A DNA stretch of 64,000 nucleotides. Origin: a virus (taxonomy: Duplodnaviria; Caudoviricetes). The first letter of the stretch is position 1. The number at the start of each line of letters is the position of its first letter. The stretch is taken from positions 22,954 to 86,953 of IMG/VR virus record IMGVR_UViG_2888028904_000001; one strand, given 5' to 3'. Made by a program: the position numbers and the translations under genes. Shown piece by piece: positions 439 through 43,066 of the stretch. Below the pieces are notes generated by a model, which was given only the letters and a program-made list of their open reading frames with translations, was not told where the DNA came from and searched no databases.

Positions 439-441
439 AAT

Positions 442-1608: not shown

Positions 1609-1646
1609 GTAATAGGTCGGGGTAGGTAACTATCCCGTATTACATC

Positions 1647-2738: not shown

Positions 2739-2743
2739 AGATC

Positions 2744-3085: not shown

Positions 3086-3094
3086 GGAATGGAT

Positions 3095-3760: not shown

Positions 3761-3824
3761 CCCCTAATTCACCTCTTTCATTATTTCTCTTCTCCCTTCT
3801 CAATAAAAAATCTTAGGAGTGATT

Positions 3825-4241
3825 ATGTCTAACGCTTTATTGCGTGAATTAGTGTTAAACCAAGCACTGAAAGTGACGCCTTTTACCTATTTAGACAACA
3901 CCTTTTATGTCAAAGAGTTGGATGTTGGCACCATGAATTACATTCAGCGCAAACTTCGCCAAATTAAAATCAAGCTCGCTGAGGCGCAGGACATTTATTT
4001 AGACGAAGACGATCCCGAACAATTTAATGAGGCGATAAATCGTGTCTACGATGAATATGATGTCGCCAGAATGTTGGCTTTTAAGTTGTGTGATGAAAAA
4101 GGGGAACTGCTTTTTGATGCAGAAAATGAAGAAGACTTAAAAGGTCTTAATCGTTTAGGACAAGGGTTCTCTAATGCGGTGTTTACAGCAGAAGCGGGGA
4201 ATAGCGAAAAAAACTTGGAGAACGGCGACAATTTCAATTGA
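3825..4241 (+). CDS. Tail assembly chaperone (G-like)
   Basis: Follows tail tube; LCDEKGELLF motif; slippery A-AAA-AAC near 3' end. Confidence 0.8.
   Translation: MSNALLRELVLNQALKVTPFTYLDNTFYVKELDVGTMNYIQRKLRQIKIKLAEAQDIYLDEDDPEQFNEAINRVYDEYDVARMLAFKLCDEKGELLFDAENEEDLKGLNRLGQGFSNAVFTAEAGNSEKNLENGDNFN
4208..4214 (+). promoter_or_regulatory. -1 programmed ribosomal frameshift site (A AAA AAC)
   Basis: X-XXY-YYZ heptamer in frame with chaperone; -1 frame open through 4516. Confidence 0.75.
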
Positions 4242-4516
4242 TATTGTCGCTGGCATTGGGAAAAACCCTCGCGGAAATCGAGCAAATGCCCGAAAGCCAC
4301 TTGTGTGAATATGAAGCTTTTTATCGCAAACAACCCTTTGGTTTATGGCGAGAGGATTATCGGATGGCACAAGTGGCGCATCTTCTTGCGATGATAAATC
4401 GTGATCCGAAAACGTCTCCGCCTGAATTGATGGATTTTATGCCGATGTGGAAGAAGAAAATCACGGAAGAAGAGCTGTGGGATAACGTTACTGAGAGTGT
4501 ATTAGCTAATCGATAG
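4238..4516 (+). CDS. Tail assembly chaperone T part (GT frameshift extension)
   Basis: LALGKTLAEIEQM and PFG..REDYRMA motifs; -1 frame of upstream chaperone. Confidence 0.75.
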   Translation: MILSLALGKTLAEIEQMPESHLCEYEAFYRKQPFGLWREDYRMAQVAHLLAMINRDPKTSPPELMDFMPMWKKKITEEELWDNVTESVLANR

Positions 4517-4534
4517 CCCCACATCAGTGGGGCT
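4515..4534. terminator. Hairpin between convergent genes (likely terminator)
   Basis: AGCCCCAC-atca-GTGGGGCT perfect 8-bp stem. Confidence 0.55.
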
Positions 4535-4540
4535 TAATCG

Positions 4541-4732
4541 TTAACCACCGCGAGACATTTTCTCAATTTTTTTATCCGTATTGTATTGAGAAAGCGCATA
4601 AACCGACCAGATAGCCGCAGGGATCCAGCCAATTAATGTGATTTGTAGGATAAGGCAGAAGATGCCAGCAAATGGGCGACCAATCGTGAAAAATTGTAAC
4701 CAAGGTAGTAATAACGCCAGAATAAGTCTCAT
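4541..4732 (-). CDS. YqaE/Pmp3-family small membrane protein (moron)
   Basis: LILALLLPW...LIGWIPAAIWSVY two-TM pattern; opposite strand within tail operon; GAGGGG RBS. Confidence 0.8.
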   Translation of the reverse strand: MRLILALLLPWLQFFTIGRPFAGIFCLILQITLIGWIPAAIWSVYALSQYNTDKKIEKMSRGG

Positions 4733-4858
4733 AAAACCCCCTCTATTATTCGAAATTTCAGTTTATCAATAATTAAATCAATAGCAAATAACAAGGAATA
4801 TTGCATTTATTCAGGATGAAAGTTTGCTTTTGTAGTGTTCATACCAAGGATTGAATTT

Positions 4859-7800
4859 ATGGCGGGAGCATTAGGTAGATTAAATATTGATTTGACGCTG
4901 AATACGGCAAATTTCACAAATGCGATCAACCGTAGCCAGCGCCAAACAGAACAATTTGGGCAAAGTATTCGCGTCAGTCTTCAAGCTATCACCGTACAAC
5001 AAGAGCGAATGGTATCGCAAACCGCAAAATCCTCAGCGCTTTTTGCCCGTTTTGCGAGTGTCACCGCAAGTGCATTATCCATTCATCAAGTCATTAATTA
5101 TGCCGATAGTTGGACTGAATTACAGAACCGCTTAAAACTGGTGACAGAAAGCTCCGTTGAGTTAAATAAAGCCACACAAGCCGTCTATGATATTGCCCAA
5201 AAAACCTATCAATCATTGGATGCCACAGCACAGGTTTATCAACGTTTTGCGGATAATGCCGATCGCTTAGGCTTAAGTCAGCAAAAAGTGGCTGAACTCA
5301 CAGAAACTGTCTCAAAAGCCGTGGCGATTTCGGGAGCGAGTGCAACCGCAGCACAAGCGGCATTAACCCAATTTGGTCAAGCATTAGCCTCGGGGCAGTT
5401 ACGCGGGGAAGAGCTGAATTCGGTGATGGAGCAAACCCCTGCGTTAGCGAAAGCCATCGCTGACGGAATGGGTGTCAGTGTGGGTGAACTAAGGAAGAAA
5501 GCCCAAGACGGTGAAATGACGATTGAAAAAGTCATTCAAGCCTTAGAGCGTGCTGCCGACAGTGTGGATAAAAAATTCGCCACCAGTGTGACAACGGTTA
5601 GCCAAGGTTTCACTAATCTTCAATCGGCGATGACCAAATTTATTGGTGAAGCGAATCAAGGTACAGGTGCGACTCAGCTTTTTACCACAGGGATGACCAC
5701 TCTTGCCGATAATCTATCGTTAGTCGCTAAAGTAGTCGAAGGGATCGCCGTCACGGCATTGGTAGCAAAACTCTCTCAATGGACGAAAGCCACTTATCTG
5801 AAAAATCAGACAACGTTGAATGAAGCCAAAGCCACATTACAGAGTGCAGAGGCAAACAGTGTGGCAGCAACCAGTGCCGTGAGGAAGGCATGGGCGGATA
5901 AAGAAGCCGCCACATCGGCGCTCAATAGAGCCAAAATGGAATATCAAGTTGCTAGAGGCACTAACGCGGAAAAAATAGCACTTGATAACCTTATTGCCAC
6001 AAAATCACTCGCAAGAACAACCTCTCTAAATTATACACAGGCATTAACCGCCGAAAACGTTGCTCAACGTGCATTAACGACCGCTCGGCGTCAATCAACG
6101 GTGGCGGGGCGAGCACTTAACAGTGTTATGGGATTCGCGGGTGGCCCTATTGGATTAGTGTTGACGGGTGTTGCGGCATTGGGCATGGGATTGTATGAAT
6201 ACAGCGAAAATGTCAAACAAGCCAAGTTAGAATCGATTGAATTTGCTCATTCCCTTGATACATCAACAGAAGCGTTAAACAAAATGAGCAATGCCACGTT
6301 AGTGGCGAATTTAAGCAAAGTTTCATCGGGCATTAACGCGCAATTGGAGAAAATCGAGGAACTTAAACAACAGGTTATTTCCTTACAAGGTCTATCAAAA
6401 TACAGCGTTGAGAGTGAAAAGGCGTTTACTGAACAAGGTGTGGGGGATTTATACCTTAAACGAGTGGCTGAAAAGCAAAAAGAGCTTGATGCTGCGATGG
6501 GGATATATGCAGAGCAAGTTAATAACTTAGAGCGTCAGCGAGCCAATATGCAAAATATGTTGGCGACACTCAAAGAAAAAGTAGGTGACCAAGCTCCTGA
6601 ATATAGACGCTATGCCACCGAATTACAAAATGTTGATGCCGTTATCAATTCACTTAAGGCGAGTTTAAAGAGTTTAGGCATTGAATATGAATCACTCATT
6701 AATATCACGCTTCAGGCGACAAATAGCCAAGTGAATGCCGCCATGGCGATTGCTAAACAGATTGATGAATCGATTGAAAAATCGCAACGTTCAGTGGCAA
6801 AAGCACAAGCCACAGGGAAGGTATTAGCGAAATTAAATGCAGAAGATGTATTGGCTTCACGCAAAATTACGCCAGATATGCAAGGCTACGATAAGGCCTT
6901 ACAAGCTGAAATTGAGGCACAACTGGCACTGCAAGCCAAACGGACGTATAAGCCCAGCCATAAATCAACCATTGATTATGCCAAGCAATACACCAAAATC
7001 TTAACGGAATTAGAGGAAAAACAAGCCTCACTGATTGCGGATGGACAAAGTATTCAGCTGTATGGCACTACCTCTTCCTTTAATGAATACACATCCGCAT
7101 TAGCCGATATCAAACAGAATAAAGACAAATTTGATGCCATCTTAAAAATCGATCCCAAAGCCATTGAGACGATAAAAGAAAAAGCGAAAGCCATTGATGA
7201 TTTAGCTCGTGCCAACTCGGTTGCGCAATTTGCTTATGATCGCGGTAAAGAAATTGAGCAGATGCAATTTGAAACCACCTTGATAGGAAAGACACGCGCA
7301 GAGCAAGAAAAACTCAATGCCCTTCGTCAGATTGATGTGCTGTATCAGCAAGCCAGTGTGGATTTAGGCGAGAAAGAGCTGGCGAACTTACAACGCAATG
7401 TCGAACTCACTAAGCAGCAGATTGAGGAAGAGCTGAGGAAGCGAGAGGCCATGAAAGGCGATCCGATGGTGGGATTAAAACAAGGCTTATCGGATTTCAG
7501 TGAGTCGGCTATGGATGTAATGGAGAACGTCAGAAACGTCACTACCAATGCCCTTAATAATATGTCTGATGCATTAGCCGATTTTGCTTTAACGGGCAAA
7601 GGAAGCTTTAAAGATTTTGCCAATGCGGTGATTTCCGATATCACTCGAATGGTAATGAAAATGCTGATTTTCAAAGCCATTGAAGCAGGCGGGCAGGCAA
7701 TGGGCTTTGATATGGGATGGATGAGCAAAGGGCATGCTTACGGTGGTTATACGGGGCATGGAGGAAAATTCGAACCTAAAGGGATTGTACATGGTGGTGA

Positions 7801-8134
7801 GTTTGTTTTTACCAAAGAAGCGACGGCTAAATTGGGTGTCGGCAATCTCTATCGCTTAATGCATGCGGCGCAAGGTTATGCTTCGGGGGGCTTTGTGGGG
7901 CCGGTCGCAGGGCGAATACCCGTTACACCGCAACCGACGTTAGCCCATGCAGGTGGTGTACAAATGACCGTCGTTAATCATATTACGGTGACGGGAAATG
8001 GTGACGCTGTACTTGCACAGGCAATGAAGGAAGCCGCACAACAAGGGACAGAAGCAGGCGCACAGAAAGCTCACGCGATGATGTTACAAGACTTTCAAAG
8101 TAATGGCGCAGCACGCAGAACATTAGGAGTCTAA
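4859..8134 (+). CDS. Tape measure protein
   Basis: ~1090 aa, helical; QALASGQLRGEELNSVMEQ and GIVHGGEFVF motifs. Confidence 0.95.
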   Translation: MAGALGRLNIDLTLNTANFTNAINRSQRQTEQFGQSIRVSLQAITVQQERMVSQTAKSSALFARFASVTASALSIHQVINYADSWTELQNRLKLVTESSVELNKATQAVYDIAQKTYQSLDATAQVYQRFADNADRLGLSQQKVAELTETVSKAVAISGASATAAQAALTQFGQALASGQLRGEELNSVMEQTPALAKAIADGMGVSVGELRKKAQDGEMTIEKVIQALERAADSVDKKFATSVTTVSQGFTNLQSAMTKFIGEANQGTGATQLFTTGMTTLADNLSLVAKVVEGIAVTALVAKLSQWTKATYLKNQTTLNEAKATLQSAEANSVAATSAVRKAWADKEAATSALNRAKMEYQVARGTNAEKIALDNLIATKSLARTTSLNYTQALTAENVAQRALTTARRQSTVAGRALNSVMGFAGGPIGLVLTGVAALGMGLYEYSENVKQAKLESIEFAHSLDTSTEALNKMSNATLVANLSKVSSGINAQLEKIEELKQQVISLQGLSKYSVESEKAFTEQGVGDLYLKRVAEKQKELDAAMGIYAEQVNNLERQRANMQNMLATLKEKVGDQAPEYRRYATELQNVDAVINSLKASLKSLGIEYESLINITLQATNSQVNAAMAIAKQIDESIEKSQRSVAKAQATGKVLAKLNAEDVLASRKITPDMQGYDKALQAEIEAQLALQAKRTYKPSHKSTIDYAKQYTKILTELEEKQASLIADGQSIQLYGTTSSFNEYTSALADIKQNKDKFDAILKIDPKAIETIKEKAKAIDDLARANSVAQFAYDRGKEIEQMQFETTLIGKTRAEQEKLNALRQIDVLYQQASVDLGEKELANLQRNVELTKQQIEEELRKREAMKGDPMVGLKQGLSDFSESAMDVMENVRNVTTNALNNMSDALADFALTGKGSFKDFANAVISDITRMVMKMLIFKAIEAGGQAMGFDMGWMSKGHAYGGYTGHGGKFEPKGIVHGGEFVFTKEATAKLGVGNLYRLMHAAQGYASGGFVGPVAGRIPVTPQPTLAHAGGVQMTVVNHITVTGNGDAVLAQAMKEAAQQGTEAGAQKAHAMMLQDFQSNGAARRTLGV

Positions 8135-8731
8135 ATGTCTATTCTTGAATGGCCAAAAGAGGTGATCCCCACACAAGAAAACTGGCAATTATTGAGTAAC
8201 AGCAAAACCTTTACCTCACCATTTAATGGAAGTAGCCAGACGGTACGCTTTCCGGGAAGCCGTTGGCGTTGTGAGCTGACATTTAATAATTTAAATGAAG
8301 AGAAATCGCGCCAGTTAGAAGCGCTGGTGGCTTCATTGGATGGGATGTCGGGGCGAGTCAAAATATCAAGCTGGATAAGAAAAGGGCGTTATGGGTATGG
8401 TTCGCCTCGTATTGCAATACCGAGCCAATTGGGTAATCGACTAGAAACGAAGGACTGGAAGCGCAATATGCGCGTGTTACAGCAAGGGGATCGCTTAACT
8501 GTGGGCAATGAACTCAAAATGGTGGTGGCGGATGTGGTCAGTGATAATCAAGGACGTGCCATTATTCTTATTTCGCCGATGTTAAGAACATCACCTACCG
8601 TCAATGAAATGCTCGAGGTTGAGCGTCCTTTTGGAGTTTTTCGGCTCGTTGATAATGAACAGGGTAAATTTCAGCATCGTCGCTTGGGGTATACCCATAT
8701 CACGTTATCTTTTGAGGAGGTGTTGTACTAA
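8135..8731 (+). CDS. Distal tail protein (putative)
   Basis: Directly after TMP; FTSPFNGS.QTV..PG.RW motif. Confidence 0.7.
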   Translation: MSILEWPKEVIPTQENWQLLSNSKTFTSPFNGSSQTVRFPGSRWRCELTFNNLNEEKSRQLEALVASLDGMSGRVKISSWIRKGRYGYGSPRIAIPSQLGNRLETKDWKRNMRVLQQGDRLTVGNELKMVVADVVSDNQGRAIILISPMLRTSPTVNEMLEVERPFGVFRLVDNEQGKFQHRRLGYTHITLSFEEVLY

Positions 8732-9312
8732 TGCAATATCATCCATTTTCTGATGCCATGGTCAACGCGATTAATGAGGGAGCTTATATCGTTTTAGCTG
8801 CCAGACTCGATTTGAAATCAGGCGTCACCTGTGCGCATACCGGTGTTGGGCAACTGATTATTGCGGGTGAAACCTATTTAGGTGTAGGAAGTTTAGGTGA
8901 AATCAGTCAGCTAAAAGAGAATAAGACAACCAGTCCTCCACAACTACAGCTTAAATTAGCCGGTTTTGATAAATCGCTGGTGGGAATGGTGATGAATGAG
9001 CAAAGTCGAGGACGCGAAGTCCGGTTGATGATGGTCGCCATTGGTGAAGAGGGAAAACCGTTGCTTGCTGAAGTCTTATTTGTCGGACAAATCACATCTA
9101 TCAATGTAGTGTCTGGCGAAGAAAATGCCGTATGTGTTAATGTTTCTAATCGATTCGAGCGATGGTCAATCGGGTTACCTGATAGATTCACCGATGAATC
9201 GTGGTCATCTCGAAGACAAGGTGATCGTATCTTTCGCTATGTCGCTCAAATGGCTGAACGGGCCATTTATTGGGGCAGTAAGAAAGATGCACCTGCATTT
9301 ATTTATAAATAA
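8731..9312 (+). CDS. Tail tip/hub-associated protein
   Basis: TYLGVGSLGEIS motif; synteny. Confidence 0.65.
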   Translation: MQYHPFSDAMVNAINEGAYIVLAARLDLKSGVTCAHTGVGQLIIAGETYLGVGSLGEISQLKENKTTSPPQLQLKLAGFDKSLVGMVMNEQSRGREVRLMMVAIGEEGKPLLAEVLFVGQITSINVVSGEENAVCVNVSNRFERWSIGLPDRFTDESWSSRRQGDRIFRYVAQMAERAIYWGSKKDAPAFIYK

Positions 9313-9329
9313 TTGTTGGAAGAAACGAA

Positions 9330-9878
9330 ATGAGTAAAAAACTTTTAGTTCCCCTTATTATGACGAGTCTATCGCTATGCGCAGCAAGTGCACAAGCCGT
9401 AGGTGAAAATACGCTTTCATTAGGTTATGCACAAAGTCATGTTAAAGCGGATGGCGATAAACTAAAAGAGAAGCCGAAAGGATTTAATGTCAAATATCGT
9501 TATGAATTCGATAATCATTTAGGTGTTATTGGTTCTTTTGCTTATACACATCAAGGCTATGATTATCGCTTAGGATCTCACTCTGTGGGAAATGGCGATC
9601 TTGATTATTATTCACTTACCGTGGGGCCAACCTATCGTTTTAACGATTATATTAGCGCATATGGTTTATTGGGTATTGCCCACGGTAAAGCTGAAATGGA
9701 GTTAAATGCCCCGGGTTATCACGAAAAAGAAAGCCAAAGTAAATCTGCATTCGCTTATGGTGCGGGACTTCAATTTAACCCATATCCCAATATCGCTATT
9801 GATGCTTCCTATGAATACACTAAATTTCATGATGTTAAAGTAGGTACATGGATGGTCGGTCTTGGCTATCGTTTCTAA
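9330..9878 (+). CDS. lom: Ail/Lom/OmpX-family outer membrane beta-barrel
   Basis: Signal peptide, GFNVKYRYE, C-terminal VGLGYRF. Confidence 0.9.
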   Translation: MSKKLLVPLIMTSLSLCAASAQAVGENTLSLGYAQSHVKADGDKLKEKPKGFNVKYRYEFDNHLGVIGSFAYTHQGYDYRLGSHSVGNGDLDYYSLTVGPTYRFNDYISAYGLLGIAHGKAEMELNAPGYHEKESQSKSAFAYGAGLQFNPYPNIAIDASYEYTKFHDVKVGTWMVGLGYRF

Positions 9879-9900
9879 TTAAAGATAAATATTATGTATG

Positions 9901-9926
9901 AAAGTCGGCATTATGCCGGCTTTTTT
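9901..9926 (+). terminator. Rho-independent terminator after lom
   Basis: AAAGTCGGCA-tta-TGCCGGCTTT plus T-tract. Confidence 0.7.
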
Positions 9927-9945
9927 GTTTTTAGGCGTTCTGATA

Positions 9946-10344
9946 ATGAAACAACCTAACTGGACACTTAAATTACCCGAAACCATAAGGGTGGCGATGA
10001 GCCGCCCTTTTTCATGGGGTGAATTTGATTGTTGTATTTTTGCCTCTGAATGTATTTACGCACAATGCGGTTTCTCGCCAATAAAGCCTTATCTCAATCA
10101 CTATAAAACCAAAGCAGAAGCCTTCAATCTTATCAAATCTAAATTTGGCTCATTAGAGAAAGCCGTTTCACGCTATTTCAAATCCATTGAGATTGAGTGT
10201 GTTCAGCGTGGCGACCTCGTACTGTTTAAAGGTGAGGATGGTGAAAGTTTAGCCGTGGTCTGGGCGGGGCATTATTGGGGCGTAACCCCACAAGGCGTGA
10301 AGCCGGTGCAGATTAACCCAATCAAAGCGTGGAGAGTGGAATAA
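9946..10344 (+). CDS. Tail-associated NlpC/P60-like protein
   Basis: PFSWGEFDCCIF and QRGDLV motifs; before tip gene. Confidence 0.7.
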   Translation: MKQPNWTLKLPETIRVAMSRPFSWGEFDCCIFASECIYAQCGFSPIKPYLNHYKTKAEAFNLIKSKFGSLEKAVSRYFKSIEIECVQRGDLVLFKGEDGESLAVVWAGHYWGVTPQGVKPVQINPIKAWRVE

Positions 10345-13300
10345 TGGGTGGGAGTGGTGGATTAATTTCAAAAGTCTTGGGTGCTGGCTTAATGATTGCT
10401 GGGCTATTTACCGGTGGCGTGACATCGGCGATGGGCATGGCGCTGATGGCGGCAGGCGTTGCGGTTCAAGTCGCGGGTTCGCTTATCTTTAAGCCAAAAC
10501 TGCCTTCCATGAATTATCGAGATACGGGTGAACGCAAACAGATGTTACGTTCATCGTCTGCGCCTGAAACCGTAATTGTCGGAAAAACAGTGATATCGGG
10601 TTTGCTTTTCTTCGCCGAAGAAGAAGCGGGGGAACAAGATGAAAACGAAAAAATCACACTGGCATTAGCGTTAGCAGGGCACCCCATAGAGAAAATTGGG
10701 AAGATTTGGTTGGGAGACGATTTAATTGAGACGTTTGGTGAATATACCGTTCATGAAGTTAAACACCTTTGGTTAAAGAGTTTAAAAATCACGGCACCTG
10801 TTGTTGAAGTGGAGTTGCATAATGACAGGGAAGATGTCGATCCCTTTATGCTTAAAAATTGCCCGTCATGGAAAGAGGATATGATTGGTCGAGGTCTGGC
10901 GTGGTTACGAGTGACACTCACGTTTGACCAAGAAAAATTCCCTTATGGATTACCCAATGTGAAATGTGAAGTCTGGGGAAAACATCTGTTTGATCCTCGC
11001 ACTGGGCAAACTGCATGGAGTAATAATGGGGCTTTAGTCATTTTGGATTATTACCGCCATTATTTAAAAGTGCCTGATACGGATATTGATTTTGACAGCT
11101 TTAAACAGGCGGCCGATTTATGTGATGAAAAAGTGAGTCTACCAGAAGGCGGATTTGAGTCGCGATATACCCTTAATGGTGCCTATGACTTAAATGAGAG
11201 TCCATCCAGTGTTTTGGAAGTGATGCACAAATGCATCAACGCGGAACCGACATTCACCGCAGGAAAACATGGTATTCAAATCGGCGCTTATTATGGGCCT
11301 GCAATAAAAACCATCACTGAATCACAATTGATTGGCACCGTCACATGTACCCCTGAAACAGGATTAAAAGACGCCACCAATACGGTGTATGGCACGTTTA
11401 TTGATGCCGAACAGTTGTACACAAAAACCGACTTCACGCCTGTGATTGTGGACGAATGGGTGAAAGAGGATGGCTTAGAAATTCGAGAGAATATCGACTA
11501 TCGTTTTGTCACCAGCCCTTATCAAGCCCAACGATTAGCTCGCCAATATCTTCGTAAAAAGAAAGCAGGAAGACGAGTTCAATTGACCATGAACTTAGAC
11601 GGCTATGCTTATCGTCCGGGTGAAGTTGTGCTTTTAGAATTACCTTCTTTGGGAATTAGTGGGCTGGAATTCCGTATTGCCGAATGGTCTTTTCATGCTT
11701 TAGACGGTGTGGCTTTAACGTTGGAAGAGGATGGTGCCTATCTATATGAAGATGTGATTGGCAAACCGTTTGAGCGTCCCCCGTTTGTGAGTTTACCCAC
11801 TGGCGGTGTTGCTTCACCCATTAATCTTACCTTTGTTCCACTTGCAGTCAGTGACATCGTACAAGGTACGCTTTCTTGGCAAAATGTTGCTTCTGATGTG
11901 CGCTATAACACCGTTACTGTTCTTCAAGAAGGCAATGTTATTCAATCTATTCAGGTACCGGCTGAGCGTGTTGATATTAACGGATTAGCGCGAGGAACTT
12001 ATCGTGTTGAAGTTAGGGCGACAAATGTGGCAGGCGCAATGTCGGCACCCGCTATCAGTGACTTTGCCATTCAAGCACCACCGCCTCCTGAGCATATTGA
12101 TGTTACCTCTGGCTTATTTAATCTGACCATTGCACCGAAACAAGGCGATAGTGCTGTCTTTGGTTATACCTTTGAGTTTTGGTTTAGTGAGGAAAAGCTC
12201 GCTGATCTTTCTGAAAATGAAGTGATCACCAAAACAAACAAAGTTGGCCAAGGGAATTTCTGGACGCAAGAGAATTTAAAAGCAGGGCATACGTATTATT
12301 TTTATGTTCGAACAATCAACAGCTATGGCAAATCACCTTTTGTGGAAGCTTCAGGTACTTGCTCTTCTCAAACGGATTTAATTCTTGAGGAATTAGCGGG
12401 GCAAATTAGCCGAGACCAATTAGCGCAAGACCTATTGGGTGAGATCAACAGCAAGGCTAACCAACTCGATATTACTGAATTACATGAGTTGATGAGGATA
12501 AATCATGACAAGATTTTATCTGAGTTGATGAGGCATGGAGCAACTATTGAAGAAAGTGAAAAAAAACTGGAGGAGGCAGGAAAATTATTAGCTGAGCGAA
12601 TGAACCAAGTTGCAACGGCAACAGAAGCACAGGCCGCCACAATTAAACAAGAGCAACAAGCACGTATTGAGGCTGATAAAACTGAAGCACAACAACGGCA
12701 ATCCTTAGCTACTCAACTTCGTGGTGATTATACCGGCAATGATTTATCGAAAGTCACCGCAGGACTTATCTCCGCAGAGAAACAAGCACGTGTTACAGGC
12801 GACCAAGCGGAAACCAAAGCCAGACAGTCATTGGAAACACGGATGAATGGAAATGTTTCCGCGATTAATAAATCATTAGAAACCCTCACTTCAAAACAGC
12901 AAGCCCAAACGCAAGAGATTTCAACGCTCAATTCAACTCTTAAAGGGAAAGCTGATAGTAGTGCGGTAAATGCGTTAAATACGCGTGTATCTAATATCGA
13001 TGGCAAAGTGACGTCTGCAACCTCACAGGTACAAACGTTATCCAGCAAATTAGATAAAGTGAAAGCCGATTTAACGGAGTCTGTGGTGGTGGATTTAGAT
13101 TTATCAAAACTCAATGAAAACACCTATTATCCGGTTATTTTGCCATTAGTGACCTCTCGTCGTTACGCGTTTAAGGTTTTTAGAACCTTAGGGCAATATA
13201 GAGACAATAAACCCAGCTATGCGACACATGGCACCAAAGGCTTTGCCATGATTGTGGAATGGCAAGTCAGTGGTTCTGGATGGGGAACACAGTCTGAAAA

Positions 13301-14159
13301 CCGCATCATTGATAATTTTGATTGGCGATGGACAAATCAATCCCCTGTGCTGGGACCCGCTCAATTAATAAATGGTTCTGTGGAATATATCTATTTGCGG
13401 GGAGGGGCAAAATATCAGTTAACTAAACACAAAAGTGTTAACCATCAAATTATCACCAGCACTTATACCAACAACAAGCAATCGGTGGCACCAAAGGGGT
13501 TTGTGGCGAATGAAGTACCTAAGTCGAGCGAACAGAAAGCCAATGCAATGGCGAATGCGGTAAGCCAACTTGAAACTAAAGTGACTGAGGTTTCAGGTAA
13601 AGTGACCTCTACCGCTCAGCAAGTCACTCGTTTAGAAAGCCAAGTGGGTACAAGTTCAGCCAAAATCGAACAAACTTCGAAAGTGGTCACAGACATAAAT
13701 GGCAAAATTTCAGCATCATGGACAATGAAAGTCCAACAAGATAGCAAAGGGAATAAAGTCATTACCGGCATTGGCTTAGGGTTTAATGCACAAGGAAATA
13801 GCCAATTTCTGGTCAATGCCCAAAACTTTGCAGTGATATCGTCATTAAACGGTAAAGTGGTGACACCGTTTGTGATCCAAAATGGACAAGCTTTTTTCAA
13901 TGATGCGTTATTTAGCAAGGCAACCATTGATAAATTATCGGTAGGTAAAAAAATCACATCCACTAATTATTTAACGGGCAAGAAAGGATTTAATATTGAT
14001 GCCACAACAGGGAATGTGGAATTAAATGATGCAGTATTTCGTGGACGATTAGATATTAACTCAGGAGGAACAAAAGGGCGGTTAGTGATCACGAATAATA
14101 CTATTTATGTTTACGATGAAAACAATCAGTTAGCGGCAAAAATAGGTTATTTAGGGTAG
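10344..14159 (+). CDS. Tail tip/central fibre protein (J-like host specificity)
   Basis: FN3-like GHTYYFYVRTIN, coiled-coil repeats, C-terminal SQFLVNAQNFAV. Confidence 0.9.
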   Translation: MGGSGGLISKVLGAGLMIAGLFTGGVTSAMGMALMAAGVAVQVAGSLIFKPKLPSMNYRDTGERKQMLRSSSAPETVIVGKTVISGLLFFAEEEAGEQDENEKITLALALAGHPIEKIGKIWLGDDLIETFGEYTVHEVKHLWLKSLKITAPVVEVELHNDREDVDPFMLKNCPSWKEDMIGRGLAWLRVTLTFDQEKFPYGLPNVKCEVWGKHLFDPRTGQTAWSNNGALVILDYYRHYLKVPDTDIDFDSFKQAADLCDEKVSLPEGGFESRYTLNGAYDLNESPSSVLEVMHKCINAEPTFTAGKHGIQIGAYYGPAIKTITESQLIGTVTCTPETGLKDATNTVYGTFIDAEQLYTKTDFTPVIVDEWVKEDGLEIRENIDYRFVTSPYQAQRLARQYLRKKKAGRRVQLTMNLDGYAYRPGEVVLLELPSLGISGLEFRIAEWSFHALDGVALTLEEDGAYLYEDVIGKPFERPPFVSLPTGGVASPINLTFVPLAVSDIVQGTLSWQNVASDVRYNTVTVLQEGNVIQSIQVPAERVDINGLARGTYRVEVRATNVAGAMSAPAISDFAIQAPPPPEHIDVTSGLFNLTIAPKQGDSAVFGYTFEFWFSEEKLADLSENEVITKTNKVGQGNFWTQENLKAGHTYYFYVRTINSYGKSPFVEASGTCSSQTDLILEELAGQISRDQLAQDLLGEINSKANQLDITELHELMRINHDKILSELMRHGATIEESEKKLEEAGKLLAERMNQVATATEAQAATIKQEQQARIEADKTEAQQRQSLATQLRGDYTGNDLSKVTAGLISAEKQARVTGDQAETKARQSLETRMNGNVSAINKSLETLTSKQQAQTQEISTLNSTLKGKADSSAVNALNTRVSNIDGKVTSATSQVQTLSSKLDKVKADLTESVVVDLDLSKLNENTYYPVILPLVTSRRYAFKVFRTLGQYRDNKPSYATHGTKGFAMIVEWQVSGSGWGTQSENRIIDNFDWRWTNQSPVLGPAQLINGSVEYIYLRGGAKYQLTKHKSVNHQIITSTYTNNKQSVAPKGFVANEVPKSSEQKANAMANAVSQLETKVTEVSGKVTSTAQQVTRLESQVGTSSAKIEQTSKVVTDINGKISASWTMKVQQDSKGNKVITGIGLGFNAQGNSQFLVNAQNFAVISSLNGKVVTPFVIQNGQAFFNDALFSKATIDKLSVGKKITSTNYLTGKKGFNIDATTGNVELNDAVFRGRLDINSGGTKGRLVITNNTIYVYDENNQLAAKIGYLG

Positions 14160-14162: not shown

Positions 14163-14414
14163 ATGAAGTTTATTGTTTTAATTACAGCATTATTATTGTC
14201 AGGGTGTACCTCTGGATATAAAAAAGTCGATTGCCAAGGTGTTTACCAAATAAAAACTTTTCACTATCAACAACCTGTATTGGTAAAGTTTGATAAAAAG
14301 AGAGAAACCATTAAAGGGCCTCTTTATCATGCTGTACCTCAATTAGGATTTAAATTCTTAGGAGGATGGGTATCTCCTGATGCCGTAGAGGATTTCTCAT
14401 GTCGTGGGGAATAG
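14163..14414 (+). CDS. Cor-like lipoprotein (putative superinfection exclusion)
   Basis: Lipobox LLSGC, two further Cys, WVS near C-terminus; next to J as cor is in HK022/phi80. Confidence 0.6.
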   Translation: MKFIVLITALLLSGCTSGYKKVDCQGVYQIKTFHYQQPVLVKFDKKRETIKGPLYHAVPQLGFKFLGGWVSPDAVEDFSCRGE

Positions 14415-14662
14415 AGATATATGAAAAAGGAAAGCCAATAAAAATCACAGGGCGTTCATTTATTTTTGACCAAATAGCGGTCACTCAGAATGGCAGTAAA
14501 ACTTATAATAATATTCCTAAAGGGCGGTCATTGGCCGCCTATATTGCCGCTAGAAATCGAGGATCTTATTTCACTGTTAGAGTCGAGAATAATAAAATCT
14601 CGTGGAATTCTCTACGCGGTAGCCAATCGATTAATGGAATTATTATGGTACTAATTAAATGA
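14399..14662 (+). CDS. Small tail-tip accessory protein
   Basis: MSWGIEIY start typical of post-J genes. Confidence 0.55.
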   Translation: MSWGIEIYEKGKPIKITGRSFIFDQIAVTQNGSKTYNNIPKGRSLAAYIAARNRGSYFTVRVENNKISWNSLRGSQSINGIIMVLIK

Positions 14663-15300
14663 GTAAATATGGTGCATTATTTTTTAATCAGGGAATTACC
14701 GAAGAATTAACACCTTATGAATCAGCCGTATTTTTAAAAAAAATAAAAACAAAGCCAGGACTAATTAAAGTCATCGAAGGTAATAATAACGCAGTGCCAC
14801 TTATTTTTATTCGAATTCTTAATTCTTCTAATCCATCATTAGGTGGATTATCTGAAGTAATTTATGAAAACAATGCGTGGTGTGTGAATTTAATCGATAC
14901 TATTCAAGGTAATTCAGCAGAATATGAGCTCTATGTATTTGTGAAGTCTTCTTATCATATTTCACTTCATCCTCAAAAATGGGGAATTCAAATTTATCAT
15001 AAAGGTGTTATTACACATGCCTCAAGCCAAAGACCGCTTAATTTATTAGAGGGAAATAACTTTGTGCTCACAGGAAATAATTGGAGTGGTGTGGATGTCG
15101 GATTCCCTTGTGCGGTATTAATCACAACAATTGGGCATATAGGGATGATGGATTCGATGGGAGGAAAAACGATTAGAGTAACTCTTTGTGGGCGAGGTAA
15201 TCGTATTATCCCTCATTCCATGATAGTAGCCGGACAGATGTCAACAACCTCTCTAGGTAAGCAGTATTTTTATATTGATGTGAGGGAGTATGGTGGGTGA
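14659..15300 (+). CDS. Tail-tip accessory protein
   Basis: MSKYGALF and internal WGIQIY repeat; analogous to 43388-44077. Confidence 0.6.
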   Translation: MSKYGALFFNQGITEELTPYESAVFLKKIKTKPGLIKVIEGNNNAVPLIFIRILNSSNPSLGGLSEVIYENNAWCVNLIDTIQGNSAEYELYVFVKSSYHISLHPQKWGIQIYHKGVITHASSQRPLNLLEGNNFVLTGNNWSGVDVGFPCAVLITTIGHIGMMDSMGGKTIRVTLCGRGNRIIPHSMIVAGQMSTTSLGKQYFYIDVREYGG

Positions 15301-15319: not shown

Positions 15320-15882
15320 TTGGTGGTGGTCGGCTTTGTACTGTGAGTTCAACCATAAAAGGGTATACTGACTTTATTGCGAACTATCATTGAACATGAG
15401 AATAAAACCGAAAAAATTACTGAAATAGAATAAACCTGAACTACTGACAGTATCTGAAAGTAGCAACGAATGTTGGTCTATGGACTTTAGGCATGATTAA
15501 CCGTCAGATAGTCGTTCATCCGTTTTCTGAATATCATCAGAACATTGGTTCATCTCATGGGGTGGAAAGAGAAAACTGTCGCCATTCGGTGTGATAAAGG
15601 TCCTAAATATACAGGAAAGATACTGATGTTATGGGGAAATATACCCCTCCGTTTTATTCAACCAAGCAAATTTCAGCAGAATGCTTATATTGAGCACTAT
15701 AACTGGTCGGTACGTTATGACTGACTGCGATAATATTTTTTTAATTGCAGGACTATACCACGCGATGGCAATGATCCTATAACTACGACCGAATATTGGG
15801 TTAGATAGTTTTACGTTAATACAGTATAGTCAACGTATGGACTAACTCTAATTATCACATCCATTAAAAATGTGGGAATTAC
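15320..15882 (+). mobile_element. Degenerate IS3-family transposase remnant
   Basis: Broken frames encode NHKRVY, NECWSMDF, QQNAYIE; many stops and frameshifts. Confidence 0.75.
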
Positions 15883-16094
15883 CGAATCCTCCGGCTACCT
15901 ATAACACTGATAATAAGATAAAGAAAACTGAGACCTCAAAGGTAATAAATGCTAATAATATGTAAAATAAAAAAGTGTTCCTTTATCTAATGACTGAATA
16001 ATCCAATGTCTTAGATGTGTTTTCTTTTGTCAAAATTTGGAACGGACTATTTGACAGACTTCATCTAAAGTAAGCATGGTTGTAACAATAGAGT

Positions 16095-16868
16095 TTATTG
16101 TCCTAGATCTATTTGTAACCGTTCTGCTTCACACTCTGCTAAATGTAGTAAATGACCTAAGGATACAAGCCGAGATGCGCTAGTGCCATGCCCATATTCG
16201 ACATCCTGCAAAAGGCGAGTTTTTTCATATAACTTATGTGATAGACCTCTCCATATCTCATTTAATTGGGAGTAGATTTGAATCTCTATATGAAAATCAT
16301 CGGTGTAGATAATATCTGCATGGTAAGCAAAATAACCGCTCGCCATCTTTGCCTCTTGCTCCACTTTTATTTCTAATATGTCATTGTAATCATCTAATGA
16401 TATTTGATTCATTTGAAGCTTTTCTCTCCATTTTGGTAATGCCTTGCTGAAGTCATTTGCAAACTTGTGAGTGCTTAAAATTACTGAACTTCTTGCTAAG
16501 TCTTTTATATTGTGTTTAATGTTGGTTGATGTGACGTATTCTGACGCATCTTTGTTCTTTCTCCATAATTTATCAATTATTGATTCAATCGGCTTGAATA
16601 TGTCGTTGTATCTTCCTGTTGATAGTTGGGTATTTAAAAGTATTTCACACTTATATGAAGAAACGTCTACATCAGCAGTCTGTTTAGCTCTTAACAAAAC
16701 GGTATTAAGTTGATCTAATAGTCTCGCGAGTTTTTCAAATCTATCTCTATTTGCTTCCAATGAATTAATTATGTTTGTTAACTCGGTTATAATATTTAGC
16801 CCAGGCTCAACTTCAAGGTTGTGCCATGTTATATATTGGTTATAGTTGAAAGTTTTTGGGCAGTCCAT
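16095..16868 (-). CDS. RelA/SpoT-domain small alarmone synthetase (toxSAS-like)
   Basis: KPIESIIDKL, KDLAR, SGYFAYH, IEIQI, W..LSHKLY motifs. Confidence 0.75.
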   Translation of the reverse strand: MDCPKTFNYNQYITWHNLEVEPGLNIITELTNIINSLEANRDRFEKLARLLDQLNTVLLRAKQTADVDVSSYKCEILLNTQLSTGRYNDIFKPIESIIDKLWRKNKDASEYVTSTNIKHNIKDLARSSVILSTHKFANDFSKALPKWREKLQMNQISLDDYNDILEIKVEQEAKMASGYFAYHADIIYTDDFHIEIQIYSQLNEIWRGLSHKLYEKTRLLQDVEYGHGTSASRLVSLGHLLHLAECEAERLQIDLGQ

Positions 16869-17225
16869 TTAAAACTCCCCAATGTAAAAAGCTTTTGAAA
16901 GTCTCTTCGCAAGAGACTTAACTTCGATACTGCACCAACTCATCTCAAAGGCTAGACTGACTTGGTGTGCTTTATTGTTTTTTATATTAAATTCATTTTT
17001 AAAAAAAGTTAGACCAGAAATAACAAAAACTTCTTGGCCTTCCCATCGATTTAATCCAAATCGTTCAAGCTTATGTTCGAAAGTGGTTTGGATAGTACCA
17101 AGTTTGTCAGATAAATCATTTAAGTACCATTCTTTAGAGAATATCTCAGTCCACATTTCATGGGCTTGTTTATAAATGTCAATGACTTTTTCGTCACCAT
17201 TATTAAGTAATTCAAATGTTTTCAT
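16869..17225 (-). CDS. Hypothetical protein, candidate antitoxin of the SAS
   Basis: Stop abuts SAS start; GAAAGG RBS; no recognisable motif. Confidence 0.6.
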   Translation of the reverse strand: MKTFELLNNGDEKVIDIYKQAHEMWTEIFSKEWYLNDLSDKLGTIQTTFEHKLERFGLNRWEGQEVFVISGLTFFKNEFNIKNNKAHQVSLAFEMSWCSIEVKSLAKRLSKAFYIGEF

Positions 17226-17488
17226 TTCATACCTTTCAAAAATTCTTATTTATATAAATAGCTTAGTATACTACCAACAAAAATTCTTAATGCTACTTTA
17301 TATAGAATTTACTCGGTTGCTCATCATTGTCTCTGTTCTCGAATATGTTCTGTGAAGAGGCTCATGCTAAATTGTTCTACGTGTTTCACAAACAGTTTTG
17401 CAACCATCAGAGTTAAGTAAGGGGCACTTCAATTATGTTGTTCTAAACATCGAAACTGTGTGATCTCAGCATGATGCTTCGCGGTAGG

Positions 17489-17610
17489 TGTAATAGCCAA
17501 CTAAAAAAGTCTCTGTTTCAGCGTTTTTCCTGTATTACCTTTCAGATTCGTTTGGTGGTAATCCATCGCTATATTCGTGTGACATGAATGTACTGCAATA
17601 TCTGACAATA
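17489..17610 (-). mobile_element. IS3-family (IS911-like) 3'-end remnant
   Basis: Minus strand encodes HEYSDGLPPNESER*Y (cf. IS911-type H.YNGGLPPNESE) plus a degenerate end. Confidence 0.55.
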
Positions 17611-18175
17611 TCGACTCTACCTGTTCATCAGGGTTATAGTGGAAAGACCTATATTCATGATTTTAACCTCATTAACAATATTGTAGTTCTGAACAACACT
17701 AATTGGGTGGATTCACGTTTTGATGTTTGTTTTAATAACGTAGTTAAAAAAACAACATATCGCTGAGATAAAGAATCAAAAAGGCTGTAATAATACAATA
17801 TATTGCTGATTTAGGTATAGAGACAGATGGAGACGTTACTCTCTGCATGTATGAAGAAAGACTATATTATCTAAAATTATATAGGTATTTTTACGCATTA
17901 ACTGAAAAGTTATAGTTTCAAATTAAATTACAAAACTTGCCAAAGTATAGTCATTTGTATTAATACTACACAGGATAGGTTTTATTTATAGTACATAATT
18001 AAGCTCGATTTGCCTCATTAGAATTATAGGGAATATAGGTAAGGATACGAGCCAAAAATAGACTATTATTTTTTATGGAACTGTGAGTTATTTAAAATTA
18101 AAAACCTTTTTATAATTTCTGGGATGTTATACTATTCATCATTGTTTTATAATTAAAAATGAGATTACAATTATT

Positions 18176-19120
18176 ATGAATGAAAAAGATACTGAGTTTC
18201 ATTGTCAAAAAAGTATTAAATTAACTATAGATGTTGATTCTGATATGATCGAAATGTTAAATGAATGGTCTAGAATGGTTCCTACACTATATTTATTAGA
18301 TATCTGTTTGGTTTCTATAATAAAATTACCAGAGGAAAGTATTAACAGAGATAAAAGAAAGAAAAAATGGATTGATGAACTTAAAAATTTAGATCGTGAA
18401 CAAAATAAATTTTCATATATATGTGCGTTAATGGAAAAAGTTAGTGATTCACGAGTAAAAATGACTGATGTCGAGTTAGAAGAACAAATATTGGGTGATG
18501 TGGCATCTTTAAGACGTTTTTTTAAAAATGCTTCTATATATGAATCTGATAAATTTTTGATTTCATTTCTCCGCGAATTAAGAGGACTACCAGTAGAAAC
18601 CGATAAGGAGAAATACGTGAGGTTTCTGAAATCTGCAAATGAAAAATTTAATTTAAAAGATGCAGTTTCACCATCAAATAGACTTAATAAAGCAAAGGAA
18701 TTATTGGAAGAAGCAGATAATATAGGGATATATAAGCAACACCCAGTAGTTGTTGTTACATTAGCTTGCTTATATGGTAATCGGCAGGCTAAAAAATTAA
18801 TGAAATTTAAAAAGAATGCTGATTTATTTGATGTTGAAAATGTTTTGTCCGATATACTAATTATTTCTAGGACAGCAAAGCTTAAGTTAGAAATAGAGCA
18901 TTATGGAAATAATGGGAGAGGGCGTTTTCCTCGTGCTATTTTTCTTTCAGATGACACCGCCCTTAATGAAATACGTAATTGTTTTGAACCCAAGATGGTT
19001 AAAAATATAGATAGTGAAGATGGAAGAGAAAGTATACTTACATTAACTGTTAATTTAGAAAAACTTATGACAGAAATTACGGAAGATGAACTCGCTCAAC
19101 TTACTGAATTGCTAAAATAG
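18176..19120 (+). CDS. Hypothetical protein, possibly PIN-like nuclease
   Basis: Long AT-rich ORF; LYLLD...ALMEK...NVLSD...FLSDD acidic pattern. Confidence 0.6.
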   Translation: MNEKDTEFHCQKSIKLTIDVDSDMIEMLNEWSRMVPTLYLLDICLVSIIKLPEESINRDKRKKKWIDELKNLDREQNKFSYICALMEKVSDSRVKMTDVELEEQILGDVASLRRFFKNASIYESDKFLISFLRELRGLPVETDKEKYVRFLKSANEKFNLKDAVSPSNRLNKAKELLEEADNIGIYKQHPVVVVTLACLYGNRQAKKLMKFKKNADLFDVENVLSDILIISRTAKLKLEIEHYGNNGRGRFPRAIFLSDDTALNEIRNCFEPKMVKNIDSEDGRESILTLTVNLEKLMTEITEDELAQLTELLK

Positions 19121-19463
19121 ATTTAATGTACTGATTACTTTTTCATGATATAAAAAGTGATATTTCAAGTGAAGTAATATAATTTTAAATTGTAATTAAG
19201 TAAAAAATGAGATTATTGAACTCTCGAACAAAATGCTGTTAACCAGAAGGAAATAATAAATATTTCAATAAACTGTTAAAATACATGGAGTGTTTGTATA
19301 TAAAAATATCAAATTTTTATTGAAATAAAAGTGTTCCCCAAAACCACTCCAACCCAAATTAAAAATCAACCAGTTACATACAAACCAAGATCACATAAAA
19401 AAAGATTATCACCCACAATAATTATAATTTATTTGATAAGTTACTTAATTATTATGGGTATAA

Positions 19464-19627
19464 TGCTACGCCACATGGGGTGGACAGAAGCGGCTGACTT
19501 AATCATTAAAGGTATGGAAGGCGCGATTGCCGCTAAGACTGTAACTTATGATTTCGAACGTCAGTTAGAAGGCGCTAAACTGCTGAAATGTAGCGAGTTT
19601 GGTGACGCGATTATCAAACATATGTAA
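19464..19627 (+). repeat. icd: icd 3'-end duplicate (att junction between elements 1 and 2)
   Basis: Encodes [21 protein letters not shown]...FGDAIIKHM*; 159/164 identical to 56303-56466. Confidence 0.92.
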
Positions 19628-19930: not shown

Positions 19931-21058
19931 TCAACACGCGATGGTTATCCATTCTTTGCCACGAACATCATTATAACGGTCGGTTTGTGCTCGAGTGGCA
20001 TGCCCTAATAAAGCTTGCGTATCGATACCCTGTTTTCGATATAAACGTTCTGATAATGAACGTTGTTCATGAAAGGAAGCTGGCATTCCTTCACCCCAAT
20101 CAATATCAGTTTTATTTCTTGCTTTGGTGAAATTCGTTGTCATCGTATTTGCTGTGACTGGGCCTCCTCGTTGCCCTTGCGATGTACTCCGAAAATAGTG
20201 AATTAAATAGTGGCTCACTACGCGATCACGACAGCGGTCAATGATTTCTTTAAGTGAAACATTAATGGCTTGATTGCGCAAAGAAAGGGGAATGGCCACT
20301 TTAGCGCCCGTTTTTCCTTGAACAACATGCAAGTGGTCATCCCAAATATCTTGAAAACGCATTCGAGAGATATCACTAATACGTTGACCTGTTACGAGAG
20401 CAAGGAGCATCGCATTACCCATATAACGGTGTTGTTTGTCCGCTAAATCATAAATCTGATGCCATTCATCTAAAGTCAATCTTTGACGTTTTATCCGAGT
20501 TTTTGGCCTTTTAGTTGCCAATGCGGGGTTATAACCTGGTGGAACTTCACCCGCATGTTGTGCTTCTTTAAAAATATCACTAAAAACGGATCTGACTACC
20601 TGTGCCATACGCGATTGTCCCGCCGTTTTATACTCGTCGAGAATACTGACCAAATCTCGAGTGCCCACTTTGGCTAATGGGAGTAAAGCTAATTTTTGGC
20701 GCATAAGGGCGATGGGTTTTTTCTTTTGCCGATAGGTGGCCAGTTGTATCTCTCCTTGATCTAAGCGTTCTTTTTGGATGTTCCAATAACGATCTAACCA
20801 TGTGGCAACCGTAATCGACTCATCTTTGTCAGTTGCAATGCGATCACTGATGGCTAAAATTTGACGCGTTCTTTGCTCTGCAATACGGCTATTTGCTTCG
20901 ATGGCGATTAGTCGCGCTTGAGTTTCATCAGCGCCCAAGGAATGAAATTTACCCGTTATAGGGTGACGATATCGCCAATATATTTTTCGCATTCTTGGGT
21001 GATACGTTGTATATAAATTGGGGATATCAATGTTTTTCTCACGAGGTCGTCCGATCAT
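19931..21058 (-). CDS. int: Lambda/phage 21-type tyrosine integrase (catalytic residues intact)
   Basis: Arm-binding N-terminus; GQRISD, QGKTG, HEQR, LLGH, DRYND. Confidence 0.93.
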   Translation of the reverse strand: MIGRPREKNIDIPNLYTTYHPRMRKIYWRYRHPITGKFHSLGADETQARLIAIEANSRIAEQRTRQILAISDRIATDKDESITVATWLDRYWNIQKERLDQGEIQLATYRQKKKPIALMRQKLALLPLAKVGTRDLVSILDEYKTAGQSRMAQVVRSVFSDIFKEAQHAGEVPPGYNPALATKRPKTRIKRQRLTLDEWHQIYDLADKQHRYMGNAMLLALVTGQRISDISRMRFQDIWDDHLHVVQGKTGAKVAIPLSLRNQAINVSLKEIIDRCRDRVVSHYLIHYFRSTSQGQRGGPVTANTMTTNFTKARNKTDIDWGEGMPASFHEQRSLSERLYRKQGIDTQALLGHATRAQTDRYNDVRGKEWITIAC

Positions 21059-42900: not shown

Positions 42901-43066
42901 TAACTATTATCCCGACGAGTCAGGTTTTATTATTGACGTAAAAAATAATAAATTAGAATTTTATGGCGGTAATGGTGGTACATCCCTCACAGAACAAAAT
43001 TTATATGTCAAAGATGAGTTTGGAAATAACGTTGTTATTATTGGTGATATCAGCAATGAAGAGTAA
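39952..43066 (+). pseudogene. J: Host specificity protein J, disrupted by internal deletion/frameshift near 40895
   Basis: ORF 39952-40971 follows lambda J to YAIGRYCD; ORF 40826-43066 resumes at GDMCAMMRIMPVWNG; intervening ~30 codons of J missing. Confidence 0.85.

Follow-up and report, generated by a model that had tools for sequence, protein, structure and literature searches.

Does a divergent alarmone synthetase gene at the end of a prophage, with a small gene abutting its start, form a module of the toxSAS (toxic small alarmone synthetase) kind, and what part would the small gene play in it? The question arises from a 64,000-nucleotide stretch of viral DNA (the window), comprising bases 22954–86953 of the 86,953-base provirus record IMGVR_UViG_2888028904_000001, in which a gene for a 118-amino-acid (aa) partner protein is followed on the minus strand by one for a 257-aa synthetase. 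The reading that we favour, and to which we give an even chance, is that the pair encodes a toxSAS-like effector that is gated by a partner of new fold and acts in abortive infection. Among bacterial immune effectors the toxic alarmone synthetases form a young class, with few known partner types (pseudo-zinc-finger, Tis1-like, Panacea, hydrolase and, most recently, nucleoid protein); one more type of partner would bring another principle of control and probably another phage trigger. The partner family and its fold, together with a separate synthetase family, appear to be what is new here; the bipartite toxSAS-like architecture is of a known kind.

Both open reading frames (ORFs) have the sizes, positions and abutting stop and start codons that an initial annotation had given them. 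On the minus strand the junction reads ...GGGGAGTTTTAAATG, where the TAA of the partner (16871–16869) is directly followed by the ATG of the synthetase (16868–16866; TAAATG), and the GGGGAG Shine–Dalgarno sequence of the synthetase lies within the last codons of the partner, at its 3′ end. The annotation had also described the pair as AT-rich, as lying between two IS3 scars at the prophage end and as lacking a hydrolase, and each description holds: at 33.9% GC the pair is well below the 43.1% of the structural arm of the phage (window positions 1–14159), it sits between two insertion sequence (IS) remnants with the tail gene J before it and an integrase after it, and HD_4, the alarmone hydrolase family, finds no match anywhere in the 86,953-base record. 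The translation contains the motifs DLARSS, GYFAYH and EIQIYS, and the searches below bear out the further claims that the larger protein is a synthetase-only RelA/SpoT protein with non-canonical motifs and that the smaller one has no recognizable family.

The synthetase and its relatives

On the evidence of its sequence and structural model, the 257-aa protein is a real but divergent synthetase-only RelA/SpoT homologue (RSH) that keeps the catalytic residues. Its score with the Pfam family PF04607 (RelA_SpoT), 29.3 bits, narrowly exceeds the cut-off of 27 bits (E = 1.1e-6, residues 92–214), and it matches nothing in NCBIfam or PHROGs. A word-indexed search returned 186 homologues at E ≤ 0.001; those among the matches listed are 141–288 aa long, many with a precomputed PF04607 assignment, and are named 'hypothetical' or 'ppGpp synthetase/RelA/SpoT-type nucleotidyltransferase'. 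Their sources, again among the matches listed, include Escherichia, Klebsiella, Rahnella, Aeromonas, Vibrio, Acinetobacter, Morganella, Shewanella, Massilia, Chromobacterium and a Bacteroidota metagenome-assembled genome. Because the synthetase has these 186 homologues and the partner has relatives in 334 clusters, we regard both ORFs as real genes and not chance frames.

When a profile of 47 synthetase homologues was compared with Protein Data Bank (PDB) chains, Bacillus subtilis RelP (6fgk) was matched at E = 5.6e-6. The positions that are invariant in the 47 homologues include K92, S96, K100, R103, K104, D123, R126, G178, Y179, H183, E195, Q197, W206, H211 and Y214. The HMMER alignment to RelP places K92, S96, K100, R103 and K104 on the ATP-binding helix (KSFESIVNKLMRK in RelP), D123 on the metal-binding Asp, G178, Y179 and H183 on the G-loop, E195 and Q197 on EIQ, and W206, H211, K212, Y214 and K216 on the W...HK.Y.K helix; we take these residues to have the catalytic and substrate-binding roles familiar from RSH enzymes (ATP-binding helix, Mg-binding Asp, G-loop). 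Within this framework the motifs deviate in three ways: EIQIYS replaces EIQIRT, the first Arg of RxK is missing, and the Arg that follows the Asp stands two positions earlier (DLxRxS as against DxxGxR).

The AlphaFold model (predicted local distance difference test (pLDDT) score 89.8, predicted template modelling (TM) score 0.85) gave 30 Foldseek matches in the PDB at E ≤ 0.001, and RelP, RelQ, Rel and CapRel were all found. RelP and RelQ (SAS2 and SAS1) came best, at E = 2e-5 to 1e-4, a TM score of 0.6–0.67 on the target and 13–19% identity (6fgx, 6ewz and 5ded), followed at 1e-3 to 7e-3 by Rel and CapRel; CapRel (3e-3), the toxSAS subfamily among these, is thus a weaker fold match than RelP and RelQ (2e-5). 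The protein resembles RelP and RelQ in size and in having N- and C-terminal helices around the same core, and differs from them in its obligate partner gene, its mobile, patchy distribution and its altered motifs. It belongs to a separate family that is closest to RelP and RelQ.

Outside the catalytic motifs, the 47 homologues share further invariant positions, near the N-terminus (Y12, W15 and H16) and on the last helix (R233, S236, L237, G238, H239, L241, H242, L243, A244, E245 and E247). In the model a single helix (230–256) follows the core, with no extra C-terminal docking domain; fused CapRel enzymes of the CapRel-SJ46 type, by comparison, carry a C-terminal pseudo-zinc-finger sensor domain, which the 257-aa protein lacks. 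The family is acidic, with a median isoelectric point (pI) of 5.8 and 46 of the 47 members below 8. The N-terminus, MDCPKTFNYNQYITWHNLEVEPG, has no hydrophobic stretch when judged by sequence reading alone, and neither a delivery domain nor a signal peptide is apparent in the sequence. Exported alarmone synthetases of the RelV-like kind, by contrast, have an N-terminal Sec signal peptide. The (p)ppApp-synthetase toxins Tas1/Apk1 and Apk2, which have Tis1-type immunity proteins, share the RSH fold and would share with our pair a toxicity that acts through nucleotide pyrophosphorylation and ATP drain and is neutralized by a dedicated binding protein, as is predicted here; however, each of them is the C-terminal domain of a polymorphic toxin that is secreted or delivered by a phage, whereas the 257-aa protein is not and has its partner upstream. 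No similarity to Tas1 or Tis1 was seen in the profile or fold searches.

Two other matches of the synthetase were set aside. PADLOC's 'oligonucleotide cyclase' model aligned through its C-terminal part with synthetase residues 33–139 (E = 6.7e-4), a stretch other than the catalytic core and a match too weak to count. The ribosome hibernation factor YhbH/HPF (4hei) gave a borderline E of 0.0017 over profile positions 30–113; the fold search contained no such relative, and the match appears to be a local helix resemblance around DSxxDKLxR (residues about 30–110).

A partner of its own, inherited with the synthetase

The 118-aa partner matches nothing in Pfam, NCBIfam, PADLOC or PHROGs, and no Pfam family is common to more than 2 of 110 relatives. 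It nevertheless belongs to a sizeable family: a HMMER scan with a 15-sequence profile recovered 334 clusters (at the 50% identity level) at E ≤ 0.001, 235 of them at 1e-10 or better, and the best 150 of the 334 are 73–219 aa long, most of them about 120 aa. In the 15-sequence alignment the invariant positions include W25, F49, E50, R60, G63, Q64, E65, G71, A92, S96, C98, S99 and E101. In the alignment of 110 sequences W25 alone is fully invariant, and F49, E50, G63, E65, A92, S96, C98, S99 and E101 are conserved in at least 90%.

AlphaFold models the partner with high confidence (pLDDT 93.6) as an all-alpha protein of six helices, and the model has no counterpart at E ≤ 0.001 in either the PDB (best 0.67) or the viral library BFVD (best 1.7). 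In a protein atlas no look-alike scored above 0.82, a level that the tool itself rates as chance, and these look-alikes, hints of a helix–turn–helix among them, were discarded. The protein is acidic (pI 5.9; family median 5.0), so a DNA-binding role is unlikely. As far as could be tested, the partner is undescribed and matches no known anti-toxSAS fold. The literature searches made turned up no description of either family; the synthetase may bear a subfamily name in the RSH or NetFlax tables.

The two genes are inherited as an obligate unit across phyla, translationally coupled and with the partner first. The synthetase profile retrieved 51 foreign loci (12 from species genomes, 6 from viral contigs and 33 from metagenomes), of which four have no upstream sequence (L006, L009, L055 and L056), three are remnants (L054, and L057 and L058 with C-terminal fragments only) and the other 44 combine an unshortened synthetase frame with sequence upstream of it. 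In 43 of these 44 the gene directly upstream, on the same strand, is that of the partner, a count that takes in one locus where the contig end cuts the partner (L026) and one where the synthetase has an in-frame TAA (L005). After removal of near-duplicates from 42 examined loci, 35 unique pair-bearing loci remained. Apart from L005, stop and start are separated by −11 to +4 nucleotides in 28 of 34 and by 10–46 nucleotides in the other 6, synthetase starts at foreign loci having been chosen by a simple heuristic rule. With the partner upstream in 43 of 44 loci and 28 of 34 junctions in this narrow range, the pair shows the toxSAS architecture as far as genomes can reveal it.

Further comparisons point the same way. 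Between loci, the distances of one protein correlate with those of the other (r = 0.83; 105 pairs from 15 loci), with equal mean divergence, which shows co-inheritance, a pattern that shared ancestry alone can yield. Among 401 sampled Enterobacterales species genomes, the full-length synthetase and the partner occur in the identical two and in no others, and two further genomes have weak, partial matches to the synthetase profile only. The co-inherited pair is known from Proteobacteria, Bacteroidota, Cyanobacteria, Planctomycetota and Chloroflexi-type genomes. When 159 neighbouring ORFs were compared all against all, no third conserved gene emerged, and the only neighbour family present at more than three loci is the lambda-type integrase (7 of 36). 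No fusion of partner and synthetase was seen among the best 120 of the 186 synthetase homologues or the best 150 of the 334 partner relatives. One ORF at L054 (924–1562, plus strand) joins partner profile positions 1–31 to synthetase positions 89–260; it is what an in-frame deletion left behind and no working fusion.

The exceptions are few. The sole full-length synthetase with another upstream neighbour is the most divergent homologue, L052, where a different 104-aa ORF (229–543, plus strand) with a CxxC...CxxC pattern and no Pfam match overlaps the synthetase start; it may represent a partner exchange. At L005 the in-frame TAA breaks the synthetase and the partner is intact, and no intact synthetase with a broken partner was seen among the foreign loci. 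This pattern of decay, with a synthetase lost, the reverse not seen and a partner swapped, fits a toxin–antitoxin pair, on tiny numbers.

A proposed gated effector and the competing explanations

A conserved bicistronic arrangement predicted toxicity for five small alarmone synthetase (SAS) subfamilies (PMC7229694). By analogy with this rule, that bicistrons resembling toxin–antitoxin operons mark toxic SASs, we infer a toxSAS-like mechanism for the pair. The partner would bind the synthetase and keep it inactive, and contact would probably be made through invariant residues specific to the families, namely Y12, W15 and H16 together with the C-terminal helix SLGHLLHLAECE on the enzyme, and W25, the GQE motif at 63–65, S96, C98, S99 and E101 on the partner. 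A phage cue, or loss of the partner during host shut-off, would release the enzyme, which would then move pyrophosphate from ATP onto the 3′-OH of an acceptor. Drain of ATP and arrest of growth would abort the infection and so protect the lysogen population and the prophage.

Purine nucleotides are a likelier acceptor than tRNA because the synthetase family is acidic, and the product would then be (p)ppApp or (p)ppGpp; the acidity, a matter of bulk charge alone, argues only weakly against tRNA. Known toxSASs that modify tRNA are reported to bind it tightly and nucleotide-making ones weakly or not at all (PMC11782079), and the preprint on the PANGU system used a missing basic pocket to predict a nucleotide product (10.64898/2026.04.06.716658). 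The altered motifs (EIQIYS and the shifted Arg) and the acidic surface make the acceptor a directly testable question, and the module, being two short genes, is easy to clone.

Bipartite toxSASs (FaRel2–ATfaRel2, PhRel2–ATphRel2, unfused CapRel and FaRel) likewise combine a synthetase-only RSH with a small neighbour, the two genes forming a conserved bicistron in which they often overlap; these systems too spread horizontally, occur in prophages and keep the G-loop Tyr and the Asp and Glu. The partner here differs in lying outside the folds that two papers give for their antitoxins, which are pZFD/PAD1/D27 (pZFD, pseudo-zinc-finger domain), Tis1-like proteins, Panacea and the small alarmone hydrolase (PMC11782079, PMC10440598). 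The enzyme differs too: it is of a distinct acidic family that Pfam barely recognizes, and its toxicity is a prediction. The pair offers a partner whose fold is its own and which is strictly inherited together with a distinct family of synthetases. Taken as a whole, we would describe it as a toxSAS-like module of two genes, complete in itself and borne as cargo by a prophage, a description for and against which the balance is roughly level and in which toxicity, binding, product and defence are all predicted. More tentatively, and with the greater weight of probability against it, the pair could be an undescribed, phylum-spanning anti-phage system in which the helical partner senses infection and gates a pyrophosphokinase with a nucleotide acceptor, whose product may be neither of the known toxSAS outputs.

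Several observations weigh against a toxSAS-like defence module. The initial annotation had proposed such a module, and its bicistronic side stands, with a partner conserved upstream; its toxicity, neutralization, phage protection and altered substrate are predictions, and the nearest relatives by both sequence and fold are RelP and RelQ, which are non-toxic housekeeping enzymes, and not CapRel or FaRel2. Among PDB chains the 47-homologue profile picked up no known toxSAS at E ≤ 10, the validated subfamilies being FaRel, FaRel2, PhRel, PhRel2 and CapRel, and the PADLOC library recognizes neither protein, save for the weak cyclase match to a non-catalytic stretch. At the protein level the synthetase has no match in 50,697 GenBank phage records. 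Clear defence systems adjoin the pair at 4 of the 35 unique loci, 21 of which have at least four neighbouring ORFs, and some loci lie among ordinary genes, with a Pfam class I (Glu/Gln) tRNA synthetase and glutamate synthase among the neighbours. The conserved polar residues of the partner (E50, Q64, E65, S96, C98, S99 and E101) would suit a site for catalysis or for a small molecule as well as they would a protein interface. Finally, the partner of an SAS can be an activator and the pair non-toxic, as is reported for PANGU (10.64898/2026.04.06.716658).

This last precedent underlies the strongest alternative, which we consider unlikely: a synthetase inert on its own that the partner, as activator or sensor, switches on after infection, the pair being non-toxic and no toxin–antitoxin system. 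Pag1B, the GRel toxSAS of PANGU, is described in the same source as inactive alone and activated by its operon partner, with no construct toxic. Our pair resembles PANGU type I in being a two-gene operon on a little-studied SAS subfamily, with nucleotide production suggested, a partner that could act as a gate and, here as a prediction, an anti-phage role. The strict pairing, the good predicted folds of both proteins and the kinship of the enzyme with non-toxic SASs would all suit an activator. However, the 118-aa, acidic, helical partner, which has no Pfam match, is no nucleoid protein of the YejK/NdpA type, whereas Pag1A is a DNA-binding, YejK-like nucleoid protein of about 40 kDa; and where Pag1B has a C-terminal DNA-mimic domain (10.64898/2026.04.06.716658), the enzyme here ends in a single conserved helix and has no docking domain beyond it. 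Partner-first order with overlapping stop and start is, moreover, the usual antitoxin-first layout, and the lone single-gene knock-out (L005), a sample of one, lost the synthetase and not the partner.

It is improbable that the pair is a plain addiction module, a selfish toxin–antitoxin unit that stabilizes its mobile DNA and has no part in phage defence. The family is as rare and patchy as such a unit might be, with full-length copies in 2 of the 401 Enterobacterales species genomes; its flanks are IS remnants, an annotated IS3-family or TniQ gene, or integrases; and decayed copies exist (L005, L054, L057 and L058). Yet the pair recurs at prophage ends and beside CBASS, OLD, restriction–modification and Lamassu-like genes. 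In the window it adjoins Cor, and a retron fills the equivalent interval of the neighbouring prophage remnant. According to Jimmy et al., plasmids carry known toxSASs in few exceptional cases only (PMC7229694).

Quite improbable, in our view, is a signalling enzyme that is not toxic and has a regulatory subunit; the prophage would thereby give its host an extra source of (p)ppGpp and alter its tolerance of stress or the control of lysogeny. By sequence and by fold the enzyme does match housekeeping (p)ppGpp synthetases best, it is acidic like nucleotide-using SASs and unlike a nucleic-acid binder, and several loci lie among ordinary chromosomal genes. Against this, identity to RelP and RelQ is 13–19% only, a strict overlapping two-gene unit that spreads horizontally across phyla is unlike a housekeeping SAS, and the record holds no hydrolase to balance synthesis. 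Very improbable is a partner that works in the manner of a type IV antitoxin, as a small enzyme or ligand binder that destroys or sequesters the product of the synthetase without binding it: the conserved residues of the partner are mostly polar or acidic (R60 among them) and a weak profile match to the S-adenosylmethionine (SAM)-AMP lyase 9gab aligns the GQE motif (E = 0.026), but we rejected the lyase, since the confident model is helical throughout and resembles no solved structure, be it a lyase, a hydrolase or another protein. The partner has neither the conserved His/Asp metal motifs of HD hydrolases nor a Pfam family.

Setting of the pair in the window and elsewhere

The favoured reading, of a toxSAS-like module carried as prophage cargo, also draws on where the pair is found (Table 1). 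The gene order in the window is J, Cor, two moron genes, left IS remnant, pair, right IS remnant, a 314-aa ORF, an isocitrate dehydrogenase (icd) fragment and integrase. The left remnant is 66–78% identical (in the rows listed) to plasmid stretches, most of them annotated as IS3-family transposase, and contains an ORF (15545–15724) with a weak rve_3 match; the right one is 76% identical to the IS911 copies of phages Sf6 and SfII. Cor and the morons directly after J show that this interval is used for host-protecting cargo. We regard the stretch from J to the integrase as a cargo slot because the neighbouring element carries recognized defence genes there, and this one Cor and the pair. A further cargo gene may be the 314-aa ORF, for which Pfam, NCBIfam, PADLOC and PHROGs all gave no match.

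Table 1. Positions of the pair and of other features in the window
Feature	Position	Strand	Remarks
Synthetase ORF	16095..16868	minus	257 aa; candidate effector
Partner ORF, upstream gene	16869..17225	minus	118 aa; candidate antitoxin, sensor or regulator
Translational-coupling junction	16866..16880	minus	sequence read directly
Left flank, IS3-family transposase remnant	~15350..15885	.	identity to plasmid stretches and weak rve_3
Right flank, IS3/IS911-like remnant	17520..17611	.	IS911 identity
J-like tail protein	10329–14159		first prophage, before the pair
Cor-like superinfection-exclusion lipoprotein gene	14163–14414		phrog_1119; directly after J
Two membrane 'moron' genes	with Cor, 14163–15300		phrog_557 and phrog_425; after Cor
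314-aa ORF	18176–19120	plus	29.6% GC; between right IS remnant and icd fragment
Isocitrate dehydrogenase 3′ fragment	19331–19627		separates cargo of first prophage from second integrase
Lambda-type integrase	19931–21058	minus	start of second, defective element
J-like protein of second element	40826–43066		
Retron msr RNA	44405–44486	plus	RF00170; 59.5 bits
Retron reverse transcriptase	44700–45662		RVT_1
Retron ATPase	45659–47308		AAA_21/AAA_15
215-aa ORF of retron region	47311–47958		
910-aa protein	49181–51913	minus	NACHT NTPase match, E = 3.9e-6; between retron and third integrase
Third lambda-type integrase	56587–57690	minus	

Searches for transcription signals and transcripts at the locus were negative. 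A scan of 15850–17550 for consensus promoters and terminators gave four promoter-like sites, none usefully placed, where shuffled sequence led us to expect 7.5. Raw RNA reads from two runs of related strains match only a short IS-like piece (~17540–17579) in the right IS remnant. A 174-nucleotide metatranscriptome contig covers 16970–17143 and a contig from a run with a guessed RNA label covers 15967–16115; neither shows transcription. The DNA of the phage arm has no match in GenBank phages.

At other loci the surroundings support a view of the module as mobile-element cargo in defence-rich positions, and they show horizontal spread on prophages and islands. A CBASS cyclase (E = 3e-116) and a Cap15 effector neighbour the pair at L007, an OLD/GajA-like ATPase–TOPRIM nuclease and PDC-M34A at L008, a type II restriction enzyme and C5 methylase at L016, and a type III methylase, a Fic-domain protein and an LmuB-like ATPase at L048. 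The batch scan of neighbours also matched PDC-M34B, at a locus that was not assigned. Three neighbours are ambiguous: an ABC ATPase (L034), a RecD-like helicase (L036) and a Ser/Thr kinase (L047). Mobile-element genes occur near the pair at L002 (TniQ, Tn7-like) and at L028 (a truncated integrase, with a GtrA-family gene), and the 399-aa ORF downstream of the pair at L005 resembles an IS91-type transposase, by eye only.

The second element of the window, which starts at the integrase after the icd fragment, carries a cI-like repressor, a replication initiator and a DNA methylase. It is defective: a 1,113-aa ORF (region 32567–35908) joins the N-terminal ATPase part of terminase gpA to tape-measure domains. 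The retron that follows its J-like gene occupies 44405–47958, at 27.7% GC. The 910-aa NACHT protein beyond it may be an Avs-like sensor. The prophages appear to be arranged in tandem, the icd fragment lying between the cargo of the first and the second integrase.

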